From the NCBI GenBank assembly GCA_000442015.1, contig KE561174.1, positions 1 to 56,547 of the forward strand: a stretch of 56,547 nt of DNA. The letters are read 5' to 3'. Made by a program: the position numbers and the translations under genes. Every line of letters starts with the position of its first letter. Position 1 is the first letter of the stretch. The stretch is from Rozella allomycis CSF55 (Eukaryota). The notes beneath the pieces are model-generated. The model did no database searches. It was not told the DNA's origin and was given only the letters and a program-made list of their open reading frames with translations. Positions 1 through 53,406 of the stretch are shown here, piece after piece.

Positions 1-5
1 TTCTA

Positions 6-40
6 TTTTTAATGCGAGCGAAGCGAGTACAACCGCTAGT
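6..40 (+). mobile_element. Helitron-like terminus (GC-GAA-GC hairpin + CTAG-T), copy 1
   Basis: tttttaatgcgagcgaagcgagtacaaccgctagt, identical 35/35 to 23211-23245 with different flanks. A hairpin shortly upstream of CTAG followed by T is the Helitron 3' end signature. Confidence 0.6.
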
Positions 41-85
41 CATATAACTGTTGAAATACGGTCACTAGGTCAAGAGAGTAAACAA

Positions 86-3000
86 ATGCAATCAAATCGC
101 TTACCTGAAATAAGCCCTTCATCTGAAACGCTAAAGTCTGATAAATTATCTTCAAAGAGCCGCGAAGATGAGTTGCGTGATATTCTTTTGCGAAAGAATA
201 AGTGTTACACCTTGAAAGGTTCGAATTACCAATCAACTAAAGTAGAGCTCTGCAGAGTATCAAGAGAATATCGCCGTTTGCAGCATCCGATATTGCTTGA
301 AAAACAGCGAGAGCTTTGCAATTACCCTATATGTACATCTAGAAATAATCAAAGAAAACCAATGAAGCCTCCCCTCAGATTGCCTTCCATCAAAGCGAAA
401 TATGGTGACGAGGAGCCTCTTACGGATGATCAACGTTATCAAAAAACCTTTAAGCATATATTTGTAGAGACTGTTGTAGAAAAGAAAAACAAAAACATAA
501 AATTCCCAAAAAGTAAATATTGCATACCAAGGAAAGATATAGAAGAACCCCAATTATTAGATCCTACACTGTTTATATCCAATGAAGACGAGAAATTGAT
601 AAAGGCTATTGATTCTGCAGCGAACAAAACAAAGGAAGATGAACTGAGAGTAACAAATATCATTCATGATAAGTAGGCGAGTACCAATTTTTTCATTCAT
701 TCTATTCGACGCAATATAAAGGTTAATTTCCCCGACACTGCAAAGAAAGGAATACTCAAGTATATTTCTAAAGAGCTCTTGACTGACCATCCATTACTTG
801 CAAATACCCTCCTTGATGAAATTAAAGATGAATACATTGAAAGTGAGACTCAGTCTGCTTTAAAATTTGTTTTGAAGAATCCCAATGTTAATACTGAACA
901 GCATGTTCAATCCTTGTTTTACGTCAAGGAACACGTCCCAACACTCCCTGCGCCCTGGCATGAATCTTTTGTCGCAAACAAAAAACGGCTTGAAGGTCAC
1001 CTGATGATTGGACATCCCGCGATGATAAGAATTCTTGAATTGAGCGGTGTTGTTGATCATATAAGACTATGTGATACTCATGAAATTTTAAAATCTGCTC
1101 AGAAGCTTCGTTTGACTAGCTTCAAATCTATGGTTTTAGTTCAGTCTGAAGTTTGCCGCGACCGACTTGTGAATGGGTAATTTACTATTTTTCTTATTTA
1201 AAAGATGGCTAAAGACTGTGATTGAAATTTTGTCTTCATTTTTCATGCCTGAAAAGAAGAATGAACGGGCTAAGAACATGAGAGTTTTTAGATGTGCCAC
1301 TGCATTTGTGCAAATTCAAATTCGCAGTTTGATTTTAGATTCTATAGATAGATATTGTTCCATTTTTGATGATATTGAAAAGAATCCCCACTTTTTTTTA
1401 AAAGTATTTGAATGTGAAAACCAAATTGCTTGTGAACCTAGGATCGAAGATGTTGAAGCCGCAATATTGGAAAGTATTGATATCATGTTGACCACAGTGG
1501 ATTCCTTGCCATCTTTGTATTACAGTGTTAGTGTTAAGCCAAACGAGACAGAAGATACTCTATCTCTTGTAGATGAAGATATTAAGATTACTATTAATGA
1601 CGACCATGTAGAAAATGTGAAGCAAATATTAAAAGAAAAGATGAAGTTTGGTCATTCGAGTATTTTGAAATACTTTGATACTTTCGAATCCTATAAATTT
1701 TTGTGCAGCAATGGACTTCAAGATGAAATTGCTGAATTTTTCAAATTTAGTCATTCATTTGAAGAATTATCAATGGTAATATGTGATATATATTGTGTTA
1801 GCAAATTGAAAAGTATAGGAATATGCCAAATGAGATCTATTCGAATGCAAGAAATGTAACGATACCCTTATTTCATGTGAACATGGAAGAATATTTCAAA
1901 TACTTATCCGATCGTGCGATTTCAATATCTGATCAATTTTTATCAAAGATGATGCAGGACAGCATTGTTAAACAAAAAGGGTAAGAAGTAAAATTCAGTT
2001 GAATAAAGAATATGCAAGAGATTTGAGAATATCCAAGATAGGGCATTAAGAACCCCAGAAACATTTAAAGAAATGGCTGATCTGATGACTTTTATGGAGC
2101 ATGTAAAGAATGTTGAATTGCCAAGTTTGAATGAAGAACTTGAAGAAGCAAAGAGAAGATTCCTTTATATAATCAATCTCGGATTTTTGACTGAAGAGAT
2201 TGTCGCTTTGAACACAGTAACATTCACATGGCCAATGCGACTTCAACCAGTGCTTGATCGCAATGAAGAAATCTTACTGAGCGCGAGAAGGCAGAATGAA
2301 AAATTGTTAGAAGAGAGAAGAAATAAGTTTTTGGAAGAATTAGAAGAACTTGAAAGTCAAGTTGTGGAGCTTGAAAAGGTGGAAGATTTTGATGAAATGC
2401 AGTTTTATGTGAAGAAAGTTCAGGGGATGATGAAACAGCTTGTTAGCGCTCAGGAAACGATTGCTGCTTTTAACAAAGAAGAAGGATTGTTTGGATGGCC
2501 TTTAACAGATTACCCTAAAAGAAATGCAATTATTGATAAATTGGAGCCTTACAATCAGTTGTATTCTGCAGCGGTGTCATTTCAAAAAGCTAATAAGAAA
2601 TGGATGGATGGAAATTTCGCTGAATTAGATCCACAAAATATTGAAGATGAGTTAGATTCTCTTAGAAGAGAAACCTTTAAATTGGCCAACATTTTAAGTG
2701 ACGCCCCTGCTCCTAGGAACATTCTTGCGATGACGAAACAAAAGATTGAAGAATTTTCAGTTAATTTGCCAATGATAAAGATTTTGTGCAATCCTGGAAT
2801 GAGAGAAAGACATTGGATCAAACTGTCTCAGATTTCCAACATAAACTTGAAGCCAGATGCAACCGCTTCACTTCGCAAGTTTCTTAAGATGAATTTAGAG
2901 AAATTTATTGATAGTTTTCAAGAAGTGAGTGATTGTGCCAGCAAAGAATATTCACTTGAAAAGGCTTTGACTAAAATGAAAGGAGAATGGGACCCAATAT

Positions 3001-6000
3001 TGTTTGTATTGAAGCCTTACAGAGAAACAGGAACGTGTGTGATTGCAGCTGTAGATGATGTTCAACAGCTCTTGGATGATCAGATTGTTAAAACACAAGC
3101 CATGCGTGCATCGCCATATAGCAAACCGTTTGAACAGGATATTAAAACGTGGGAACAAAAACTATTGCTTACACAGGAAATAATTGATGAATCGTTAAAA
3201 GTGCAAGCGACCTGGCTTTATTTGGAACCAATTTTCAGTTCAGAAGATATAATGAACCAAATGCCAATCGAAGGCAAAAAGTTCAAACAAGTTGACGCGA
3301 CTCGGAGAGAAGTTATTAAAGTAAGATCATTAAAAATGTTGAGATAAGACATTTGAAGCACAAGGGCAGGTTCTTAAGGTTGCCGATATTCCTGCATTGC
3401 TCGATGAACTAAAGGGCTGCAATAACTTTTTAGAAATAATTCTAAAGGGCTTGAATGATTATTTAGATGCAAAGAGATTATTTTTTCCAAGAGCTTTCTT
3501 TCTTAGTAATGACGAGGTAACAATTGGAATCAAATAATTATAGCTTTTGAATATACTCAGTCAAAGCAAGGATCCAAGAAGAGTTGAACCGCATTTAAGA
3601 AAATGTTTTGAGGGAATTGCATCTTTGGATTTTGATGAACAGCTACAGATTGGTGCTGCTTTGAGCTCTGAAGGCGAGAGATTACAATTCGAATCTAAAG
3701 TTACCACAGCCGATGTAAAGGGAGCAGTTGAAAAATGGCTTTTGAAGGTGGAAGCAGCCATGCTGGCTAATGTTCGCATAGTTATCGAAAAAGCATTACA
3801 AGCATATAAAACAACTCCAAGAGAACAATGGGTTCTTGATTGGCCCGGTCAAGTTGTTTTAGCCGTCGGCCAAATATTCTGGACGGCAAATGTTGAAAGG
3901 GCAATAAGCGGCGGTGGCAAAAAAGGTCTTGAAGAGCTTCATGCTCGATTGACCAGCGAATTGAATGATGTCATCAAGCTGGTTAGAGGAAACATATCAA
4001 AAATGGCCAGGATGACATTAGGCGCACTAGTGGTTATTGATGTGTAAACATATTTTGATTTTATAAAAAGACATGCAAAGGATGTTGTATATCAATTGAT
4101 GCAAGAAGGCGTCAAGGACGTTAATGATTTTTCGTGGCTTGCCCAGTTGCGATACTATTGGGAAAACAATGACGTTTATGTCAAAATGATAAATTCTACT
4201 GTTAAATATGGATATGAATATTTGGGAAACACTAGTAGACTTGTTATTACGCCGCTTACTGATCGTTGTTATCGAACATTGTTTGGAGCACTTCAGCTAA
4301 ATTTAGGAGGTGCGCCCGAAGGCCCAGCAGGCACAGGGAAAACAGAAACAGTGAAAGATTTAGCGAAAGCTATTGCCAAGCAGTGTGTTGTATTTAATTG
4401 TAGCGATGGGCTTGATTATCTAGCAATGGGAAAATTCTTTAAAGGTTTGGCGGCATCAGGAAGCTGGAGTTGTTTTGATGAATTTAATAGAATTGATTCT
4501 GAGGTTTTGTCTGTAGTCGCCCAACAGATTTTGGTTATTCAAAGGTCTGTAGCTGCGAAATTGGAGAAGATTGTGTTTGAAGGAACTGAAATTAATTTGA
4601 AGCAAGGATGCGCAGTGTTTATTACGATGAATCCTGGTTATGCTGGTAGATCTGAATTGCCTGATAATTTAAAGGCACTGTTTAGGTCTGTAGCTATGAT
4701 GGTAATAGTTTTGGAAATTGTTGAAAAGGTGCCCGATTATGTTTTGATAGCTGAAATAACTTTATACTCTTATGGATTCATTGAGGCGAGAAACCTGGCA
4801 AGAAAGATAGTGGCGACATACAAACTCTGTTCTGAACAACTTTCATCGCAAGATCATTATGATTATGGAATGAGAGCGGTTAAAAGTGTTCTCGTAGCTG
4901 CTGGAAATTTGAAGCAAAAGAGTGGCAACTTATCAGAAGAAATAATAGTTCTCCAAAGTATCATTGACGTCAATTTACCTAAATTTCTTGCACAAGATGC
5001 TGAATTGTTTAAAGGAATCACTTCAGATCTATTTCCAGGTGTTAAATTACCAAAATTAGATTACTCATTATTTGACGAAGCATTAAGATCGAATTGCAAG
5101 AAATATAATTTGGAGCCAACACCGTATTTTCTAGAAAAAGCTATTCAAGTGTATGAAATGATGTTGGTGCGTCATGGATTCATGCTTGTTGGCGAACCGG
5201 CTGGCAAGACAAGTTTATACAAGGTTGTTGCTAATGCCCTAACAGATTTATCTAATGCTGGTCATGAAGAGTACCAGAAAGTGCAGTACAAGATTATCAA
5301 TCCCAAGTCCATAACACTCGGTCAGTTGTATGGGCAATTTGATCCCGTGTCACATGAATGGCAAGATGGGATTTTATCAGTGACATTCCGCTATTTTGCA
5401 TCTATGAACACTCCCGAACGCAAATGGTGCATTTTCGATGGCCCAGTTGATGCAGTCTGGGTGGAAAACATGAATACTGTGTTGGATGATAACAAGAAGC
5501 TGTGTTTGATGAGTGGAGAAATTATCCAGTTGACCAATACGATGAGTTTGATCTTTGAAACAAGAGACTTGTCTGTAGCTTCCCCTGCGACTATTTCAAG
5601 ATGCGGGATGGTTTATTTGGATCCAGAGTCTTTAGGCACTGAACCGATGCTGAAATCGTGGCTGTCTGTTTTGAATATTCCAAATCAAAGTAAAGAAACG
5701 CTGGAACATTTGATCCAATATTTTGTGAAAGATTGTGTTCATTTTGTGAAAAAGAATTGTAAAGAGCTTTGCATCACTTCTGAATTGAATTTGGTGAAAT
5801 CGTTTGTAAATTTGATGGAAACGCAGTTGACAGATAAGACAAAAGTAGATTTAATTGGCATTTATTTTAAATTTGTGTAAGTTTATATTTTATTGATGTT
5901 GTAGATTCGCAATTGTTTGGTCTATTGCCGGTTGTTTAGATACAGAGAGTCAGAAAAAGTTTGACGAGTTTTTCAAAACAAAGCTGCAAAAGGCTGTCGA

Positions 6001-9000
6001 TGACAATTTAATGCATTTAATGGTGCTTCCAAAAGAGGACGAGTCATGCTTTAATCTGGTGCATAAAGAAAGCCAAGGATCGTGGATGTGGAGACCCTGG
6101 TCATCATTGATCGATCCATCTTTTAATATTCCCAATAATGCCAAATATTCGTCTATTACTATTCCAACAAAGAATACAGTCAGATATAGTTATTTATTGA
6201 AAACATTGATAGAAAATAAGAAACCTTGTTTAATTACGGGCCCCACAGGTAATTATTTTCAACAGGGTTGAAAGGGACTGGCAAGTCAAAGTACATAATG
6301 AATGAATTGATGTCGCTGCCTACCGATCAGTATGATTCTACAGTGATAACATTTTCGGCGAGAACGAGCGCCAACCAAACGCAGGACATAATCATGTCAA
6401 AGCTGGACAAGAGAAGAAAGGGAGTCTATGGGCCTCCGATGGGCAAGACGTCTCTAGTGTTTGTTGATGATTTGAACATGCCGACCAAGGAGCGCTACGG
6501 AGCGCAGCCGCCCATTGAACTTTTGCGACAATTTATAGATCACGGATACTGGTACGATCGCAAGGAGATAACCAAGCTGGAGTTGACTGATGTGTTATTG
6601 CTGTCAGCGTTGAACCCGACTGGTGCGTATGACAAGGTGACGTTACGGTTCCTGCGACATTTCAATATGCTGAGTGTGAATCCATTTGATGATCAAACGA
6701 TGCAGACAATATTTGAGCGTATCTTGCAGTGGCATTTTGCGGGCAATGGGTTTGTGGAGAGTCTGCAGATGTTTGTGCCAAAGATTGTGCAGGCGACTAT
6801 TGAGGTGCATAAGCGTGTTTGTGTGAATCTGCTGCCGACGCCTGAAAAGACGCATTATACGTTTAATTTGCGGGATCTTGGCAAGGTGATCCAGGGGATG
6901 ACGTTTGCCAAGGGCAGCGAGTATGTGAGTGAGCGGGGTGTGATGCTGTTGTGGCTGCATGAGGTGTATAGGATCTACAATGACCGGCTGATTAATGTAG
7001 GGGATAGGGAATGGATGTTTGACCAGGTGAAGCAAGTTGTTGTTGATGTTTATAATGTGCGAGTTGAGGAGATTATGGAGACGCGGGAAGTTGAGTGTTC
7101 TGATTTGTGTGGGATGATGTTTGATTTTGTGCCTGATGAGAGTGGGCAGAAGAGCTACAAGGTGGTGAGATCGCAGCAGGGGTATTTGGATATGCTTAGC
7201 CGACAGCTTGAAGATTATAATAATATGAATAGGAATAGAATGAACTTGGTCTTGTTTAGATTTGCGCTGGAGCATGTTGCTAGGATTCATAGGATATTGA
7301 AGTTGCCTGGTGGGAATGCGTTGCTTGTTGGATTGGGCGGCAATGGACGCAGCAGTTTGACGCGGCTGGCGGCGTTTGTAGCTGGCTATGATTTGTTTAC
7401 GATTGAGCTGACGAAGAGTTATGGCAAGGAGAATTGGAATGATGATATGAAGAAGATGATCATGGCTGCTGGAGTTGAGAATAAAAAGTGTGTGTTTCTG
7501 TTTAGTGATTCGCAGATAAAGGATGAGTCGTTTATAGAGGATGTGAATACGCTGTTGAATGCGGGTGAGATACCGAATTTGTTGGCTAGTGATGAAAGAG
7601 CGAATGTGATTGAGAGGGTGAGGGGTGATGCGCTTAGTGAAGGAGTGAGTGAAGTTGGTGGAGTTTATAACTATTTTGTGGAGAGAGTGAAGCAGAATCT
7701 GCATATTGTGTTGTGTATGAGTCCTATTGGCGATTCGTTTAGAAACCGGTTGCGGCAGTTTTCTAGTTTGGTGAATTGCACGACGATCAACTGGTTTGAC
7801 TCGTGGCCTGGTGATGCGTTGAAAGCAGTAGCGTTTAGGTATTTTGAGAGTGTTGAGCTGGAGGGCGGATTGAAAGAAAAGATTATTGAGATGTGTCGAA
7901 TGTTCCATGAGAGTTTGGGAGTGTTGTCTGAAAAGTATATGGCTAATCTGAAGCGGCATACGTATGTGACGCCCACGTCGTTTTTAGAGTTGTTGTTGCT
8001 GTATAAGAATCTGTTGAAGAAGAAGAGAGATGAGATATTGGAGATTAAGAATCGATATGATGCTGGATTGGAGAAGCTTGATTTTGCTGCGAACCAGGTG
8101 GAGAGAATGAAGAAAGAGATTAGAGAGCTGCAGCCGCAATTGAAGAAGACTTCGGAGGAGACTAGTTTGATGTTGAGTAAGATTGAAGTTGAATCTAAAG
8201 AAATTGAGACAACGAGAAAGGTAAATGGAAAGATGATTAATGTTAATTAGGTAATTGTGAATTTATTTGAATGAAAATAGGTAAACTTTGATCATTAGTA
8301 CTTTAAAATAGGTAAACACTTTTAATTCAACTTTAATAGGTCGTAGCTGCAGAGGAAATGATCGCAGAAAAGAAAGCGAAAGAAGCAGAAGCAATCAAGG
8401 CAGAATGCGAGAGTAATTTAGCAGAAGCATTGCCATTACTGAATGCAGCATTGAGTGCGCTTGACACATTAAAGAAGAGCGACATTGATCTAGTGAAAGC
8501 GATGAAGAATCCCCCGAGCAATGTAAAACTTGTGATGGAGGCAGTGTGTGTGATGAAAGACTTGGCGCCTATGAGAGTGCCTGATCCGAGTGGCAGTGGC
8601 AAGATGATAGCGGATTACTGGAAGACGTCGTTGAAGATGATATCTGATGCGCATTTCCTAGATTCACTGAAGAGCTATGACAAGGACAATATACCTGTGC
8701 ATGTTGTGAAGAAGATTCGGCAGACGTATTTGCCGGATGCTGATTTCAAGCCAGAAAAGGTGAGGAACGCGTCTAGTGCTGCTGAGGGGCTGTGTAATTG
8801 GATTATAGCGATGGAGGCGTATGATAGGGTGGCGAAGATTGTGGGGCCAAAGCAGGAGGCGTTGAAGGCTGCTGAGCAAGAGTATAATGAGACTATGGTA
8901 GGGTTGGAGGCGAAGAGGGCTGTGTTGAGGGTACGAATATGTTTAGTGTGTGTTTGTAGGATGTGTTGGAGCGATTGGGTAATCTGCAGACTAGTTTGGA

Positions 9001-12000
9001 AGCGTTGACTATAAAGAAGCAGAATTTGGAGTTGCAAGTTGGCACGTGTGAGAAGCAGTTGGACAGAGCGGAGAAGCTGTTGGGTGGATTGGGAGGTGAG
9101 AAGAGTCGATGGACGATGGTTTCGCAGCAGCTGCAGACGGCGTACCATAATCTGACTGGCGATGCGCTAGTGTCTGCTGGAGTTATTTCGTACTTGGGTA
9201 GATGATTTTAATTGTTGTTGAGAAAGGACCGTTTACTAAATCGTATAGGATGAATGTGATTGAAGAGTGGATTGCCGCTGCGAAAGAAAAGGGGATCCCG
9301 ACGAGTGCCGAGTTTTCGCTTNGAGTGGATTACCGCTGCGAAAGAAAAGGGGATCCCGACGAGTGCCGAGTTTTCGCTTGGCAAAGTGTTGGGCGATGCT
9401 ATCCAGGTAATGAAATGATGAATTGAGTATTTTATAGATAAAGTCGTGGATCATGGCGGGACTTCCAACTGATCAATTTTCTATAGATAATGCGATAATA
9501 GTGCAGAATGCGAGGAGATGGCCATTGATGATAGATCCGCAGGGGCAGGCGAATAAGTGGATAAAGAATATGGAGAAGAGTAATGGGCTGCAGGTGATAA
9601 AGTTGACTGATGGAGATTATATGAGGACGCTGGAGAATGCGATACAGTTTGGGATTCCGGTGTTGTTGGAGAATGTTAAGGAAGAGATTGATCCTGTGTT
9701 GGAGCCATTGTTGCAGAAGTCTACATTTAAATCTGGTAAGTATCAAGTAATCAACTTAACATAGGTAAATAATATCATTTAAATTAACATAGGTAAGTAA
9801 ATAGTTTAAAAATTTTACAGGTGGAGTGGTTTGTATAAAGTTGGGGGATAATGTGATTGAATATTCTAAAGATTTTAGATTGTACATTACAACTAAACTG
9901 TCTAATCCACATTACTTGCCAGAGATTTCTACAAAGATATCATTGTTAAATTTTATGATAACAAGAGAAGGATTAGAAGATCAGTTGTTGGGAATAGTTG
10001 TAGCGAAAGAGAGGCCAGAGTTGGAAGAGGAAAAGAACCAGTTGATATTGCAGAGCACAGAGAATAAGAAAAAGTTGAAAGAGATTGAAGATAAAATATT
10101 AGAAATATTGTCGTCGGTGCAAGGGAATATTCTGGAAGATGAAACAGCTGTGAATGTATTGTCATCTTCTAAAATGATATCGAATGATTTGGAAGAAAAG
10201 CAAAAGATTTCAGAAGAAACTGAAGGAAAGATTGATGAGACTAGAGAGAGTTATAGATCTATTGCAGAGTTTTCATCAGTGTTGTTTTTTTGTATAGCTG
10301 ATTTGTCTAGTATAGATCCAATGTATCAATATTCCTTAAACTGGTAAGATTGGATTATTAAAGTTAAAATTTAGGTTTGTTGAATTGTTTATTTCGAGTA
10401 TTTTGCAGTCTAATAGATCTAATCAAGTGAAAAAGAGATTGAAGAATTTAGAAGGACATTTTCTGTATTCTTTGTATTGCAATGTGTGTAGATCATTATT
10501 TGAAAAAGATAAATTATTGTTTTCATTTCTATTGTCAATTAATATTCTCCTCAACCAAAAAGAAATTAAAATGGAAGAATACCAATTCCTAATGACAGGG
10601 GGTGTTGGAATAGAAACAACTGATGAGAACCCAGCGAGTTGGTTGAGTGACAAATCATGGCAGCAAATAAACAAATTGAGTCAATTGGAATCATTTAAAT
10701 CATTCAAGAGTGATTTCAAGCCAAATGAGTGGAAACCATTTTACGATTCAAATGAGATTTCTCATTATCCAGGCAAATGGAATTCATTGAATGAGTTTCA
10801 AAAGTTGTTGATTTTGAGATGTTTGAGACCAGAAAAGATTATTCCAAGTGTGCAAGAGTTTGTTAAAATAAAGTTGGGTATGTGATCTAGTTGGATTTGA
10901 TAGGGAATAAGTTTATTGAGCCGCCCACTTTTGATTTGGCTAGTATTTTTGATGATTCTAATAATAGAACGCCACTTATATTCATTCTATCACCAGGTAA
11001 GATGTTAAAGAGTTGAAATAATTTAGGTAAGATGTTAAAGAGTAGAAATAATTAGGTAATTCTGTCTCATTAATTAAATATTAGGTAATTCTATCTCATC
11101 AATTAAATAAAGGCGTCGATCCAATCGCTTCATTGATAAAGTTTGGTCAAGACAAGGGCTTCACCAACAACAAATTCCAATCAGTGTCACTTGGTCAGGG
11201 TCAGGGTCCAATAGCCACTCAACTAATAAAAACAGGATTGAAAGAAGGCAATTGGGTTATTCTGCAAAACTGTCATTTAGCGACCAGTTGGATGTCCACT
11301 TTGGAAAAGATTTGCGATGACATTCAAACTGCATCTGTTCATAAAGAGTTTAGATTGTGGTTGACTTGTTATCCTAGTCAAATGTTTCCTGCGTCTATTC
11401 TTATGAATGGAATCAAGATGACTAATGAACCACCAAAGGGATTAAGAGCGAATATTTTAAGGTAATCAAAAGGGAGTTTGTTAACATTAGGTAATCAAAA
11501 GGTTAAGTAGTTAATAATAGGTAATTAGAAGTGGGATAGTTAACCTTAGGTAATTAGAAGAGAGTTGATTAACATTAGGTAATCAAATGTTCTAAATTCT
11601 AAATCAAAGGTCCTATTTGAGTGATCCAATTGCCGATGAAAACTTTTTCAAGAAATGCAAAAAACATTTGGAATTTGAAAAACTTTTATATTCTCTTTGC
11701 TTCTTTCATGCTCTAGTTCAAGAAAGAAAAACTTTTGGTCCACTAGGTTGGAATATCCCCTATCAATTCAATGAATCTGATCTACGTAACTTGCTAATAT
11801 TAATCTTTAATAGGCATTAGTATAAGACAATTACAAATGTTTTTAAATGAATATGATGAAATCCCATTCAAAGCTCTATTATATCTAACGGGTGAATGCA
11901 ACTATGGCGGAAGAGTCACCGATGATTGGGACAGAAGAACTCTACACTCCATTCTCTCTCAATTCTACAACCCACAAGTCCTAGAAGACCAATCATACCT

Positions 12001-13158
12001 CTACACTCTAAATCAAAACTACATTGTCCCGCCAAAAGGCAACTACGATTCCTACCTCCAGTTCATCAGAAACCTACCACTCAATGCATCCCCCGACGTC
12101 TTTGGCATCCACGAAAACGGCGAAATATCTAAACAACTCGCCGAAACAAAATCGCTCTTCGACTCTCTCCTCCTCACCACCGAAAACATCTCCTCGCAGA
12201 AAAACTCTGCCTCCAACCTGCTGGAAAACGTCGTTTCCGATATCCTCGGCAAACTAACCACGCCCTTCAACATTGACCTCGTGCAGCGCAAGTTTCCAAT
12301 CTCATACAACAATTCTATGAACACTGTGCTCGTGCAGGAAATGATCAGGTACAACAAACTCATCTCGGTGATCCACTCCAGCCTCGTTAATGTCGAAAAG
12401 GCGCTTAAGGGGCTGATTGTCATGTCGAGCGAGCTGGAGGATATTTGCAAGAGTATACTTATGGGAAAAGTGCCGGTGCAGTGGGCATCCAAATCGTATC
12501 CGTCCCTGAAGCCGCTTGGAAGCTATGTGAATGATCTGCTCAAGAGGATAACGTTTTTGAATGCGTGGTTTGAGAATGGTGCGCCGTTGGTTTATTGGCT
12601 GCCTGGGTTCTTTTTCACGCAGTCTTTCATCACAGGTAATGCAGAGAGTATTTAGTTAATCTAGGTAATAAAGAAAATATTTAGTTTAATTAGGTAATAG
12701 AGAGAAAATTTAGTTAATTAGGTGCATTGCAGAATTACGCTAGAAAATATACAATTCCAATAGACGAACTATCCCTAGACTTTGAACTAGTCTACAACGT
12801 CACAGAACCACCAACAGACGGCGTCTACGTCAACGGTCTCTTCCTTGAAGGCGCCCGCTGGTCCAAAACTAAACACTGTCTCGCTGAATCATATCCCAAA
12901 GAATTATACGACGCCCTCCCAACTATTCTCTTCAAACCAATCAAATCAACTGAACTCAAACCGAAAAGTGTTTATGAATGTCCAGTGTACAAGACTAGCG
13001 AGAGAAAAGGTAAATGGGTTGTTGAAGATTGAGTAGGGACGCTGAGCACTACGGGGCATTCCACTAATTATGTGCTGACACTTAGGCTGCCGACTGATAA
13101 GCAGGAGAAACATTGGGTTAATGCGGGAGTTGCTGCTTTACTACAATTAGACGATTAA
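86..13158 (+). CDS. Axonemal dynein heavy chain, single-headed inner-arm class (DNAH3/7/12-like), multi-exon
   Basis: AAA1 [48 protein letters not shown], stalk/[28 protein letters not shown]-terminal [13 protein letters not shown]...LLQLDD*. ORF pieces are joined by 26-31 nt GT-AG introns and five stacked intron arrays; N-join at 9322. Confidence 0.96.
8221..8339 (+). other. Stacked mini-intron array 1 (4 units: 8221-8250, 8251-8280, 8281-8311, 8312-8339)
   Basis: Each unit is GTAA...TAG (30/30/31/28 nt). Removing all four joins TTRK|VVAAEE in frame. Confidence 0.9.
9736..9820 (+). other. Stacked mini-intron array 2 (3 units: 9736-9764, 9765-9792, 9793-9820)
   Basis: Each unit is GTAA...AG (29/28/28 nt). 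Removal restores [14 protein letters not shown]. Confidence 0.9.
10997..11112 (+). other. Stacked mini-intron array 3 (4 units: 10997-11026, 11027-11055, 11056-11084, 11085-11112)
   Basis: Units are 30/29/29/28 nt; units 1 and 2 are near-identical, as are 3 and 4. Removal restores the conserved [11 protein letters not shown]. Confidence 0.92.
11462..11609 (+). other. Stacked mini-intron array 4 (5 units: 11462-11490, 11491-11520, 11521-11549, 11550-11578, 11579-11609)
   Basis: Units are 29/30/29/29/31 nt, all GTAAT...YTAA...AG. Removal restores [14 protein letters not shown]. Confidence 0.92.
12636..12721 (+). other. Stacked mini-intron array 5 (3 units: 12636-12664, 12665-12693, 12694-12721)
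   Basis: Units are 29/29/28 nt and mutually homologous (GTAAT...TTTAGTT(T)AAT...TAG). Removal restores [14 protein letters not shown]. Confidence 0.92.
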
Positions 13159-13221
13159 CAATGGAGAAACAATAAATAGAACTTGAAATTCATTGCATTA
13201 TTTATTTTTACATCTCATCAA

Positions 13222-51082: not shown

Positions 51083-53406
51083 ATGAGCTTTCAACCTCAT
51101 CCCGATGACATTATTAACAACATTATTCAAGAGATTTGCAAAAGATCTAAAGCGATAATCGTGAAACAAAAGAATGGAGCATCTAATTCAGATCATTTGA
51201 ACATTCCGGACAACGTCTTTGAGATGCNTTGGCAGCATTCATCGTTAGATCTACTATTGTAAATTCGGACAAGAAATTCAATGTGGAAAATGAATTTACC
51301 AATGAAGAAGTTGAAAGATTGATGGACGTACATACTTAGCTTCTGATTAATAGATTTGTGTCAAGGAGATTGTGCAAACGGATTCGCCTAGGTTAGAAAC
51401 ATTGAAGATGCAACTATTATTTGATTCGTCTTTACCAATTCAATGTAATACCAATTCTTTATTTTTAGAGACGAACATTTGAAGAAGAGTAGAAATTCTA
51501 AAACGTCACAGCTCGCTCCTCTTTTGCGAGAAATCTTAGATTTTTCTTCCAAAAATTTAGCCAATATTGATGGTATGATACAATGACGAAAATATAATAG
51601 AACTTTACAGGAAAATTGTAATGTACGTGATTATAAAAAGTGAACTGGGTGATCCAATGAATCTCAACGTTGTAAAAGAAACGACTGGTACAGTATCGTT
51701 CTCATGATAATGATAGCTGGNATGTTGTGAAAGAAACTACAGGTATAGTCTGATTTTTATTTTAAAGATAGCTGGATTGGAAAGCACATTTCCAACATCG
51801 GAAGTTCATGTTTTTATTAGTTTGCCGAGGCCGGAGAAAGAGACTCAGCTTAATGGACTAGTCCAATTAGTTGCTGGAATAAGACTTTTTAATAAAGATA
51901 TAGGAAAAGGAGGTGAAGGGATAGAAGATCGTACGCCATTAACTCTATTTTAACCTAGTGCCATCATTCTGTGATCAGAAATTTGAAGTGCTAGATTCAG
52001 ATATAGGCAAAAACAATGAATTGTTTAAGCAACTTATTCAGAGATATACTGCGATGGCTAAAGTTTGCGAATTAAAAGAGGATGAAGAGGAATCCAAATT
52101 ATGTCAAAGGTCGAAAGAAGCTTTGATTTTTTGCTATCAGATAGTTAAATATTTAGAAGTGATAAGAGTATATTATTCAGTTCCCCATTATAGGATCATC
52201 AGGCATCAAGCTTAAAGACATTGTCAGAAAACAGACAAAAGTATTTCGAGACAATAAAGAACCTTAAGCAAATTTGCAAAGCAAAGACAGCAGTACCTGT
52301 CGATCACGTTTATGTAAAACTTTTATATGTTTAAAACTTTAGCCTCTCTTTATGTTATTGAGCACTTGTTGGAACACTTGGAAAGAAGAACTTTTTCTAT
52401 TGACATTCAGAGATGAGATATTTAAGAAGATGGTGGGTTTTTCTAAAGTAAGGGGATATCATTATAATAATTGAATTTCAGGATCATTGTTCCACCGACA
52501 TATGAGGACGCCATAATAAGAAATACGAATTCTACTTATGTTATTACGAAAACAGATGTAGAAATAATCAATACGGCTGCTGATCTGATGAGTACAGTGG
52601 GTCTTTACAATCGAAAAATTGAAGTTCTCCATCCTGGAAACTCTTCTGTCTATCACAAATTATACACAGAATATGCTGTAAAAAATGATGGCTTCCATAA
52701 AAGGGGTTTTGTCCAACTTCTGTGGCTACAAAGGAAGCCTTCTTAATTCCTGGTACAAAGAATGTTGGAATCCTTCGATATAAGGACCAACTATTCTCAT
52801 TTGCCTCATTTGATGCCGCTATTGAATTTGCTAAAGCGCCAGAGGAGTATGAATATATCCTATATAAGACTAGAATTTTGAAAGGAATTGTTGATATGGC
52901 ATGTTCCTACCCTCAGCTAGTATACATTTTGAATCTCCACCGCTATTTCCCGACAATTGCTGCATTAGAAAATGTGAGATCTTTTGCGAAACAAAAGTTA
53001 CTCGGGAAAGTAGCAATAAACTTTGATGCTTCATGTCAAACGGATACGCATATTATTGATCAAAATATTGACCCTGATTATGAATGGAATGAATGGGAAA
53101 TGAGACGAAAAGCAATAATGCTGGTATGATATACTTTAATCCACAATAGGTTAATTTGAGACACAAAAGGACTCATGCAGCACAGACTGACAAGAGCCAT
53201 TTTAGACGCGAAAATTTTAGTCAGCATTACGAACCAAAGTAAAAATTAAGCTTATCATCTCAAATTTTAGGGTTTCAGAAACGCAAACTAAAAAGGATTC
53301 ATCAACAAAAGTACCCAAGAAGGTGAATTTCTTGGCTGGATTGAGGCATGATGGAAAGAAGGGAACTCATTTAAACGTTGTTGATTTAACGCTAAATATA
53401 GGCTAA
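51083..53406 (+). CDS. CFAP206: Cilia- and flagella-associated protein 206, multi-exon
   Basis: IINNIIQEI, LAAFIVR, PRLETLKMQ..FD, LVAGIRLFNKD.GKGGEGI, KTAVPVDHVYP, QTDTH....NIDPDYEWNEWEMRRKAI.LVNLR, QTDKSHFRRE; Ns at 51228 and 51721. Confidence 0.9.

Follow-up and report, generated by a model that had tools for sequence, protein, structure and literature searches.

Positions 11462–11609 of contig KE561174.1 of Rozella allomycis CSF55 (assembly GCA_000442015.1) separate two exons of an axonemal dynein heavy chain gene and are composed of five consecutive units, each with the appearance of a complete, very small intron. The question raised by this locus is whether these 148 nt represent one intron that holds a repeat, or an array of mini-introns that leave the RNA one after another. 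The window, i.e., the whole stretch of DNA analysed, comprises 56,547 nt (positions 1–56,547 of the forward strand). Probably (roughly 0.6), the array is a copy-number-variable minisatellite of self-sufficient mini-introns, removed unit by unit via zero-length exons.

Structure of the five-unit array

Direct reading of positions 11462–11609 agreed exactly with the initial annotation of the locus, which had described five units of 29–31 nt, all starting with GTAAT and ending, in order, with TTAACATTAG, TTAATAATAG, TTAACCTTAG, TTAACATTAG and CTAAATCAAAG. Its statement that the unit middles differ substantially was likewise correct; the interior identity between units is 0.38–0.77. The branch-like motif, represented by TTAAC, TTAAT or CTAAA, begins 10–11 nt from the unit end in 5/5 units, and all four internal junctions have the form TAG|GTAAT. 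Unit 5 is the most diverged one, and only its acceptor differs from TAG. The upstream exon ends with AAG and each next unit starts with GTAAT, so that AAG|GTAAT would be restored at every step of a unit-by-unit excision. The coordinates of the array, its units and the other features are given in Table 1.

Tandem Repeats Finder detected the repeat at positions 11460–11587 with a period of 29, 4.4 copies and 74% matches, and the array, being a head-to-tail repeat of a unit of 10–100 nt, has the form of a minisatellite. Chance tiling of the 148 nt into GT..AG units of 24–34 nt was obtained in 0/20000 interior shuffles. When the dinucleotides of the entire window were shuffled 200 times, chains of at least three units arose in a single shuffle, while the real window contains five such chains, all on the + strand and in one gene. 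No significant RNA fold bridging the ends of the array was found (z = −1.31; 19/200 shuffles fold equally well).

Table 1. Position of the dynein gene, its five arrays of mini-introns, and the units and exons at positions 11462–11609
Feature	Position	Strand	Remarks
Axonemal dynein heavy chain gene	2..13158	+	5′ end may lie beyond the window start
Sister array, four units	8221..8339	+	30, 30, 31, 28 nt; interiors unrelated
Sister array, three units	9736..9820	+	29, 28, 28 nt; interiors near chance level
Sister array, four units	10997..11112	+	30, 29, 29, 28 nt; pattern a a′ b b′
Upstream exon	11113..11461	+	ends ..AATATTTTAAG; Pfam Dynein_heavy D6 P-loop region, E = 1.3e-41
Array of five head-to-tail mini-introns	11462..11609	+	148 nt; zero exon bases between units
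Unit 1	11462..11490	+	29 nt; GTAAT..TTAAC..TAG
Unit 2	11491..11520	+	30 nt; GTAAT..TTAAT..TAG
Unit 3	11521..11549	+	29 nt; GTAAT..TTAAC..TAG
Unit 4	11550..11578	+	29 nt; GTAAT..TTAAC..TAG
Unit 5	11579..11609	+	31 nt; GTAAT..CTAAA..AAG
Downstream exon	11610..11785	+	starts GTCCTA
Sister array, three similar units	12636..12721	+	29, 29, 28 nt; homogeneous

Host gene and exon junctions

The exon–intron model of the dynein gene, obtained by a shortest-path search over GT..AG introns with subsequent manual reading of problem regions, contains 21 intron sites, namely, 16 single introns (26–31 nt) and 5 arrays. The spliced model encodes 4032 aa with the sole stop at the end and gives one collinear alignment with each of the intronless metagenome homologues L001, L004 and L005 (45, 43 and 48% identity, respectively). 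Pfam families Dynein_heavy, AAA_lid_11 and Dynein_C were found on two exons, and the closest proteins carry the name dynein heavy chain (51% identity). A metagenome scan with the dynein exon 11816–12634 revealed 19 loci, none of them close, identity across the complete exon reaching 55% at best.

Positions 11462–11609 represent the entire gap between two exons, the junction of which is gap-free in comparison with L001, L004 and L005; therefore, exactly 148 nt must leave the RNA. The final two bases of the upstream exon, AG, open an Arg codon (phase 2). Partial retention of units results in an in-frame stop in 31/31 possible products. No exon sequence is duplicated at the array; the duplicated unit is the intron itself.

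Dynein introns of 32–84 nt are absent, all non-array introns of the gene being no longer than 31 nt, and all five gaps longer than 34 nt (85, 86, 116, 119 and 148 nt) tile fully into mini-intron units. Together, the five arrays contain 19 units of 28–31 nt, of which 19/19 have the form GTAA..AG, with the donor and acceptor expected of a U2-type GT-AG spliceosomal intron, and 14/14 internal junctions are TAG|GTAA. Units abut exactly, with their own signals uninterrupted in every unit; neither a decayed junction nor a fused unit of ~58 nt was found in any array. The exon junctions at all five arrays are gap-free versus homologues, and products with partial retention contain an in-frame stop in 75/75 cases. 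The sister arrays are named here by their first positions; arrays 8221 and 9736 were not detected by Tandem Repeats Finder. Within the window, arrays occur only in the last (3′) third of the dynein gene, where they occupy 5 of its last 12 intron sites.

Conservation of signals and divergence of unit interiors

Signal columns were defined as GTAA and the last three letters of the unit (7 per array), the alignment was made for each array, and minimal changes were counted. For the five arrays, 3 minimal changes were found in 35 signal columns versus 95 in 115 other columns (binomial p = 2e-8), all three falling at position −3 of a last unit. In array 11462–11609 alone, 1 of 21 minimal changes is located in the 7 signal columns out of 31 (binomial p = 0.033). 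Internal signal sites are intact at 28/28 positions of this array, in which the interior mismatch to the array consensus is 0–50% (P ~1e-4), and at 98/98 positions of the five arrays (P ~1e-17), both probabilities being rough, as interior mismatch rates served as the yardstick and sites and units were treated as independent, which they are not. Signals are thus more conserved than the unit middles, which is what the initial annotation had named as the test of its proposal.

Likeness of interiors was scored against unrelated introns as the null (99th percentile 4, maximum 12). Units 1–4 of array 11462–11609 are related, with scores of 8–12 in 5/6 pairs: the interior of unit 1 scores 12 with unit 4 and 8 with each of units 2 and 3, and the interior of unit 3 is nearest to that of unit 4 (score 10). 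The interior of unit 5 scores 7 with unit 2 only, and 0, −2 and −6 with units 1, 3 and 4, i.e., at the level of unrelated introns. In array 10997, the scores are 18 for a–a′, 15 for b–b′ and −1 to −6 between a and b units; in array 8221, they range from −4 to 2, matching the null.

The most serious alternative is that an ordinary intron of 148 nt, holding a young neutral minisatellite, leaves the RNA in one splicing event that uses the first donor and the final branch site and acceptor; the GT and AG inside it would then be passengers, preserved because the units are young and are homogenised with one another. The clear relatedness of units 1–4, as well as a column test of only p = 0.033 for this array alone, agrees with such an explanation, as do the in-register variation in copy number, common to any minisatellite, and the fact that stepwise splicing is proposed here from DNA sequence. 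Homogenisation, however, would keep entire units alike, not just their ends. In arrays 8221 and 9736, the TAG|GTAA junctions are perfect although the interiors are alike only at chance level, and the same combination is seen between the a and b halves of array 10997 and between unit 5 and units 1, 3 and 4 of array 11462–11609. That mini-introns with unrelated interiors adjoin at perfect junctions speaks most strongly against a single long intron whose inner parts decay neutrally. The full set of intact internal signal sites, the lack of decayed junctions and fused units, internal acceptors more uniform than those of single introns (14/14 versus 41/69 TAG) and the absence of non-array dynein introns longer than 31 nt also count against single-step removal, which we consider rather unlikely.

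The initial annotation had further proposed that purifying selection acts on each unit as a functional intron. Conservation of the signals, stronger across the five arrays, supports this proposal in part; some of the likeness of units 1–4 reflects youth and not selection.

Array units and single introns of the window

The single introns used for comparison were 69 introns modelled in the window, 26–34 nt long, and the array units (28–31 nt) are within this range. Array units have a mean length of 29.2 nt versus 27.8 nt in single introns (p = 4e-4), a GTAA donor in 19/19 versus 52/69 cases (p = 0.018) and, at internal junctions, a TAG acceptor in 14/14 versus 41/69 cases (p = 0.002), these p values being too favourable, given the common descent of the units of one array. 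The motif YTRA ([CT]T[AG]A), located 7–14 nt from the end, was found in 17/19 units and 28/69 single introns; its frequency in shuffled interiors is 0.25. Single introns show a weak branch-like consensus, and the motif in the units is a candidate branch site.

Outside the dynein gene, crude models of 18 gene spans (13200–56547, both strands) gave 59 introns, of which 55 have a length of 26–34 nt with a mode of 26 nt; arrays were found at 0/59 of these sites. A scan of the whole window against Rfam revealed no family at the gathering score.

Exon boundaries and intron positions

The sequence AAGGT is present at both ends of array 11462–11609, with AAG upstream and GT in the downstream exon. For the five arrays, the following exon starts with GT in 4/5 cases versus 4/69 single introns (Fisher p = 3e-4), and the preceding exon ends with AG in 4/5 cases versus 10/69. 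Both features together, AG before and GT after, were found at three of the five arrays and at none of the 69 single introns. Such short direct repeats at a distance of 29 nt would provide what slippage or microhomology-mediated duplication requires.

Comparison with other dynein genes showed that, at array 8221, the loci L016 (about 675–865) and L011 (about 155–225) have an intron at the identical codon boundary, and that, at array 12636, the locus L017 (about 5118) has an intron at the identical phase-1 Gly codon. As these positions are common with distant eukaryotes, arrays 8221 and 12636 grew from an old intron. At the site of array 11462–11609, no intron was found in L011, L016 or L017. 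The introns at the shared positions in the dynein genes of distant eukaryotes, represented by metagenome contigs, are single and have a length of roughly 70–190 nt or more.

Location at AG..GT sites is also expected for a tiny mobile introner-like intron inserting repeatedly at AG|GT, each insertion of which recreates two sites, so that an array grows without local duplication. Unrelated interiors adjoin one another in arrays 8221 and 9736 and in the a and b halves of array 10997, and 17% of unit pairs between arrays exceed the 95th percentile of the null versus 5% expected, which agrees with such insertions. Nevertheless, the most alike units within arrays are neighbours (a and a′, b and b′, 1–4), which points to local duplication; no close copy of any array unit was found in the other arrays or among the 69 single introns of the window (best interior scores with single introns 0–10, null maximum 12); and the shared intron positions of arrays 8221 and 12636 imply that at least one unit in each is ancestral. 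From the comparisons within this window, repeated insertion is very improbable as the source of the arrays.

Copy number in other sequencing runs

The region was found in runs X1, X2 and X3 with the introns present, and since introns are carried, these runs represent DNA. The evidence from runs consists of word-graph contigs, and differences are described among the rows listed (there are 116 further rows). A contig of run X1 spans positions 11466–11664 with 0 differences from the window. One contig in each of X1, X2 and X3 joins position 11510 to position 11569, omitting 58 nt in register, with breakpoints at position 20 in both unit 2 (left) and unit 4 (right). The depths of these contigs are 24, 110 and 907 in X1, X2 and X3, respectively, at summed bin depths of 83, 330 and 1313. 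By coordinates, the omission leaves a hybrid unit of 30 nt with all signals; it looks like a three-unit form of array 11462–11609 exists beside the five-unit form. The view of the initial annotation that the conserved signals argue against a minisatellite is thus wrong as an either/or choice, the locus also being variable in copy number, with the shorter form in three runs.

Other arrays vary as well. Run X3 carries an insertion of 30 nt behind position 10994, which is an extra copy of the first (‘a’) unit of array 10997. Run X2 carries a form of array 12636 with a different interior of the last unit; this unit begins with GTAAT and, by the window’s own next letters, ends with TAG, and the contigs have loose ends at positions 12674, 12715 and 12719. 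Among the rows listed, 0 of about 10 variable places inside arrays affect GTAA or TAG.

A separate observation concerns the single 28-nt intron at positions 11786–11813, in which run X1 differs from the window at 7 positions, all of them interior (positions 6–21 of the intron), at about 1 difference per 100–200 nt in the surrounding exons in X1. These differences indicate two diverged haplotypes or strains and fast-evolving intron interiors with fixed ends.

Maintenance of the arrays for a function, for example, slow serial excisions that throttle dynein mRNA or couple it to nonsense-mediated decay in the flagellated stage, would agree with the presence of arrays at 5/21 sites of a flagellar dynein gene versus 0/59 modelled sites elsewhere in the window, and with a premature stop in every partly spliced product. 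Forms with unequal copy numbers, however, occur side by side in individual runs, which speaks against a tuned number, and the FAP206-like gene of the window, from a family named for association with flagella, has no array; maintenance for a function is very improbable. An assembly artefact, i.e., a collapsed or chimeric repeat absent as such from the genome, was rejected as next to impossible, despite artefacts elsewhere in the window and breaks of the contigs of all runs inside arrays, because the X1 contig matches positions 11466–11664 without differences, contigs of X1 and X3 cover positions 11148–11495, contigs of X2 and X3 resume at position 11605, and only the removal of exactly 148 nt restores the exon frame.

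The artefacts of the window are represented by single Ns, 13 in total, at least 7 of which lie between near-identical direct copies (58, 140, 224, 124, 112, 30 and 55 nt), namely, those at positions 9322 (9265–9322), 25183, 27826, 32047, 35611, 41414 and 51721. The duplicated copies look like unmerged contig-end overlaps. At the N in position 9322, contigs of three runs omit exactly one copy. Overlaps left in place give false frameshifts in gene models, here in the dynein gene.

Proposed origin and removal of the arrays

Array 11462–11609 may have originated from an ancestral intron of ~29 nt between an exon ending with AAG and an exon starting with GT, with AAGGT at both ends. These short direct repeats would have allowed slippage or unequal exchange, by which the intron was copied exactly from GT to AG. 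After two copies had formed, in-register unequal exchange could gain and lose whole units, and copy number would be free to vary.

As each unit has its own donor, branch-like motif, AG acceptor and ordinary length, one-by-one removal is proposed, in which the spliceosome would remove the units singly. Each internal TAG|GTAAT junction would serve first as an acceptor and then, once ligation has restored the donor, as the next 5′ splice site, behaving as a zero-length exon of the type known in recursive splicing. The five excisions would be sequential; neighbouring units are probably not engaged at once because the branch motif and acceptor of one unit lie within a few bases of the next unit’s donor. 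Only complete removal would yield the dynein frame, and selection would hold the signals of every unit while the interiors drift.

A further, tentative proposal, to which we give somewhat less than even odds, is that the spliceosome of this organism has a hard upper limit of ~35 nt, with longer sequences accepted only as mini-intron chains via obligate serial (recursive) splicing. The duplication origin at AGGT, the stepwise removal and this length ceiling are what we infer from the observations presented above.

Several points weigh against the proposed stepwise removal or against the length limit. Arrays are confined to one gene here (5/21 dynein sites versus 0/59 modelled sites in other genes), a pattern not expected if a general property of the splicing machinery were the whole cause. 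Units are handled as independent in the tests despite common descent, and only five arrays are independent; in array 11462–11609, units 1–4 are recent relatives and the locus turns over, so that conservation may partly be youth. The runs listed for positions 9400–13160 include no RNA run, and RNA run X12 is represented by three pieces of 33–36 nt at positions 10493–10528 (90–95% likeness), the arrays being uncovered. The census of introns is crude, as comparison with homologues was limited to the dynein model and lengths of 24–34 nt were favoured by the cost function, and the counts of arrays and introns cover this window alone. Four modelled introns outside the dynein gene are longer than 34 nt (38, 41, 49 and 59 nt), of which two are located at arbitrary span ends and one lies across an assembly artefact. 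In the FAP206-like gene, identified by Pfam PF12018 on three exons, the frame closes at positions 52448–52506 via a 59-nt GT-AG intron or via a 26-nt intron with a TG end (52448–52473). If real, the 59-nt GT-AG intron would weaken the argument for a length limit and, by showing tolerance of longer introns, would favour removal of the 148 nt in a single step.

Comparison with known systems

Recursive splicing, dual-specific AGGT splice sites and intron duplication are already known, and the chained arrays of 3–5 mini-introns are the variant.

Recursive splicing is known from ratchet points in long introns of Drosophila (PMC8605326, PMC5126111) and from a zero-length exon in the 336-nt intron of SPNCRNA.445 of S. 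pombe (bioRxiv 10.1101/226894). There AG and GT abut internally, as they do in the dynein arrays, and the donor is regenerated after the first ligation so that the intron leaves in pieces, as would happen here. Known cases, in contrast, contain one or a few ratchet points in introns of hundreds to tens of thousands of nt, whereas the array considered here contains four ratchet-like junctions, one every 29–30 nt, and each of the pieces has all the parts of a minimal intron. Stepwise use has been demonstrated on RNA in known recursive splicing, while in the dynein arrays it is deduced from sequence.

Dual-specific AGGT splice sites in tandem repeats were described for human UBC and VCX3A, together with 77 human introns that are a whole number of surrounding repeat units long (PMC10809524). 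In these genes, as in the arrays, the repeat unit is bounded by AGGT usable as a donor or an acceptor. The unit of UBC, however, is coding (a ubiquitin monomer), and stochastic splicing between units alters the product, whereas the unit of the array is a non-coding mini-intron of 29 nt, and all units must go. The birth of an intron by tandem genomic duplication of an AGGT-containing segment was shown experimentally (PMC3265369), and intron birth by tandem duplication is also reported in PMC4974935. The likeness consists in a single duplication between AGGT-type boundaries that gives an immediately spliceable new intron; the difference is that there an exonic segment becomes an intron, while here an existing intron would have been copied exactly, with zero exon between the copies.

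Stwintrons, the spliceosomal twin introns of fungi (PMC8469720), resemble the arrays, as read here, in needing more than one consecutive U2-type excision and in occurring in a fungus-related lineage, but in them one intron is nested inside another and splits one of its signals, whereas the units of the arrays abut with uninterrupted signals. Genomes with ultra-short introns of about 25 bp, such as those of Paramecium and Nyctotherus (PMC5014332), share with the window a narrow peak of intron length below 35 nt and premature stops upon retention. In the available parts of the literature on genomes of this type, including PMC13685798, no report of head-to-tail intron arrays was found. The literature searched contained no chain of 3–5 complete minimal introns recurring at multiple sites in one gene of an organism with introns otherwise of ~26–34 nt. 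No paper on intron lengths of Rozella allomycis was found; PMC8476143 and PMC6349667 mention the organism without lengths or arrays, and it is not listed in the supplement of PMC11649378.

Implications

The arrays make several questions testable, namely, the upper and lower limits of intron length in organisms with tiny introns, the cost-free duplication of introns in place at AGGT microhomologies and the persistence of internal splice signals in a repeat. Gene predictors and annotators will read such arrays as single odd long introns or model them incorrectly. Should the 148 nt be removed in a single step, the locus would be a neat but unremarkable case of a polymorphic repeat within an intron. 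If the stepwise removal is true, the array would represent compact, natural multi-step recursive splicing, with up to five rounds in 148 nt. If the limit of ~35 nt is true, the arrays would naturally reveal a molecular ruler by which introns are recognised and would also show introns multiplying in place without harm. For Rozella allomycis itself, the arrays suggest that the organism must excise long intervening sequences one tiny intron at a time.

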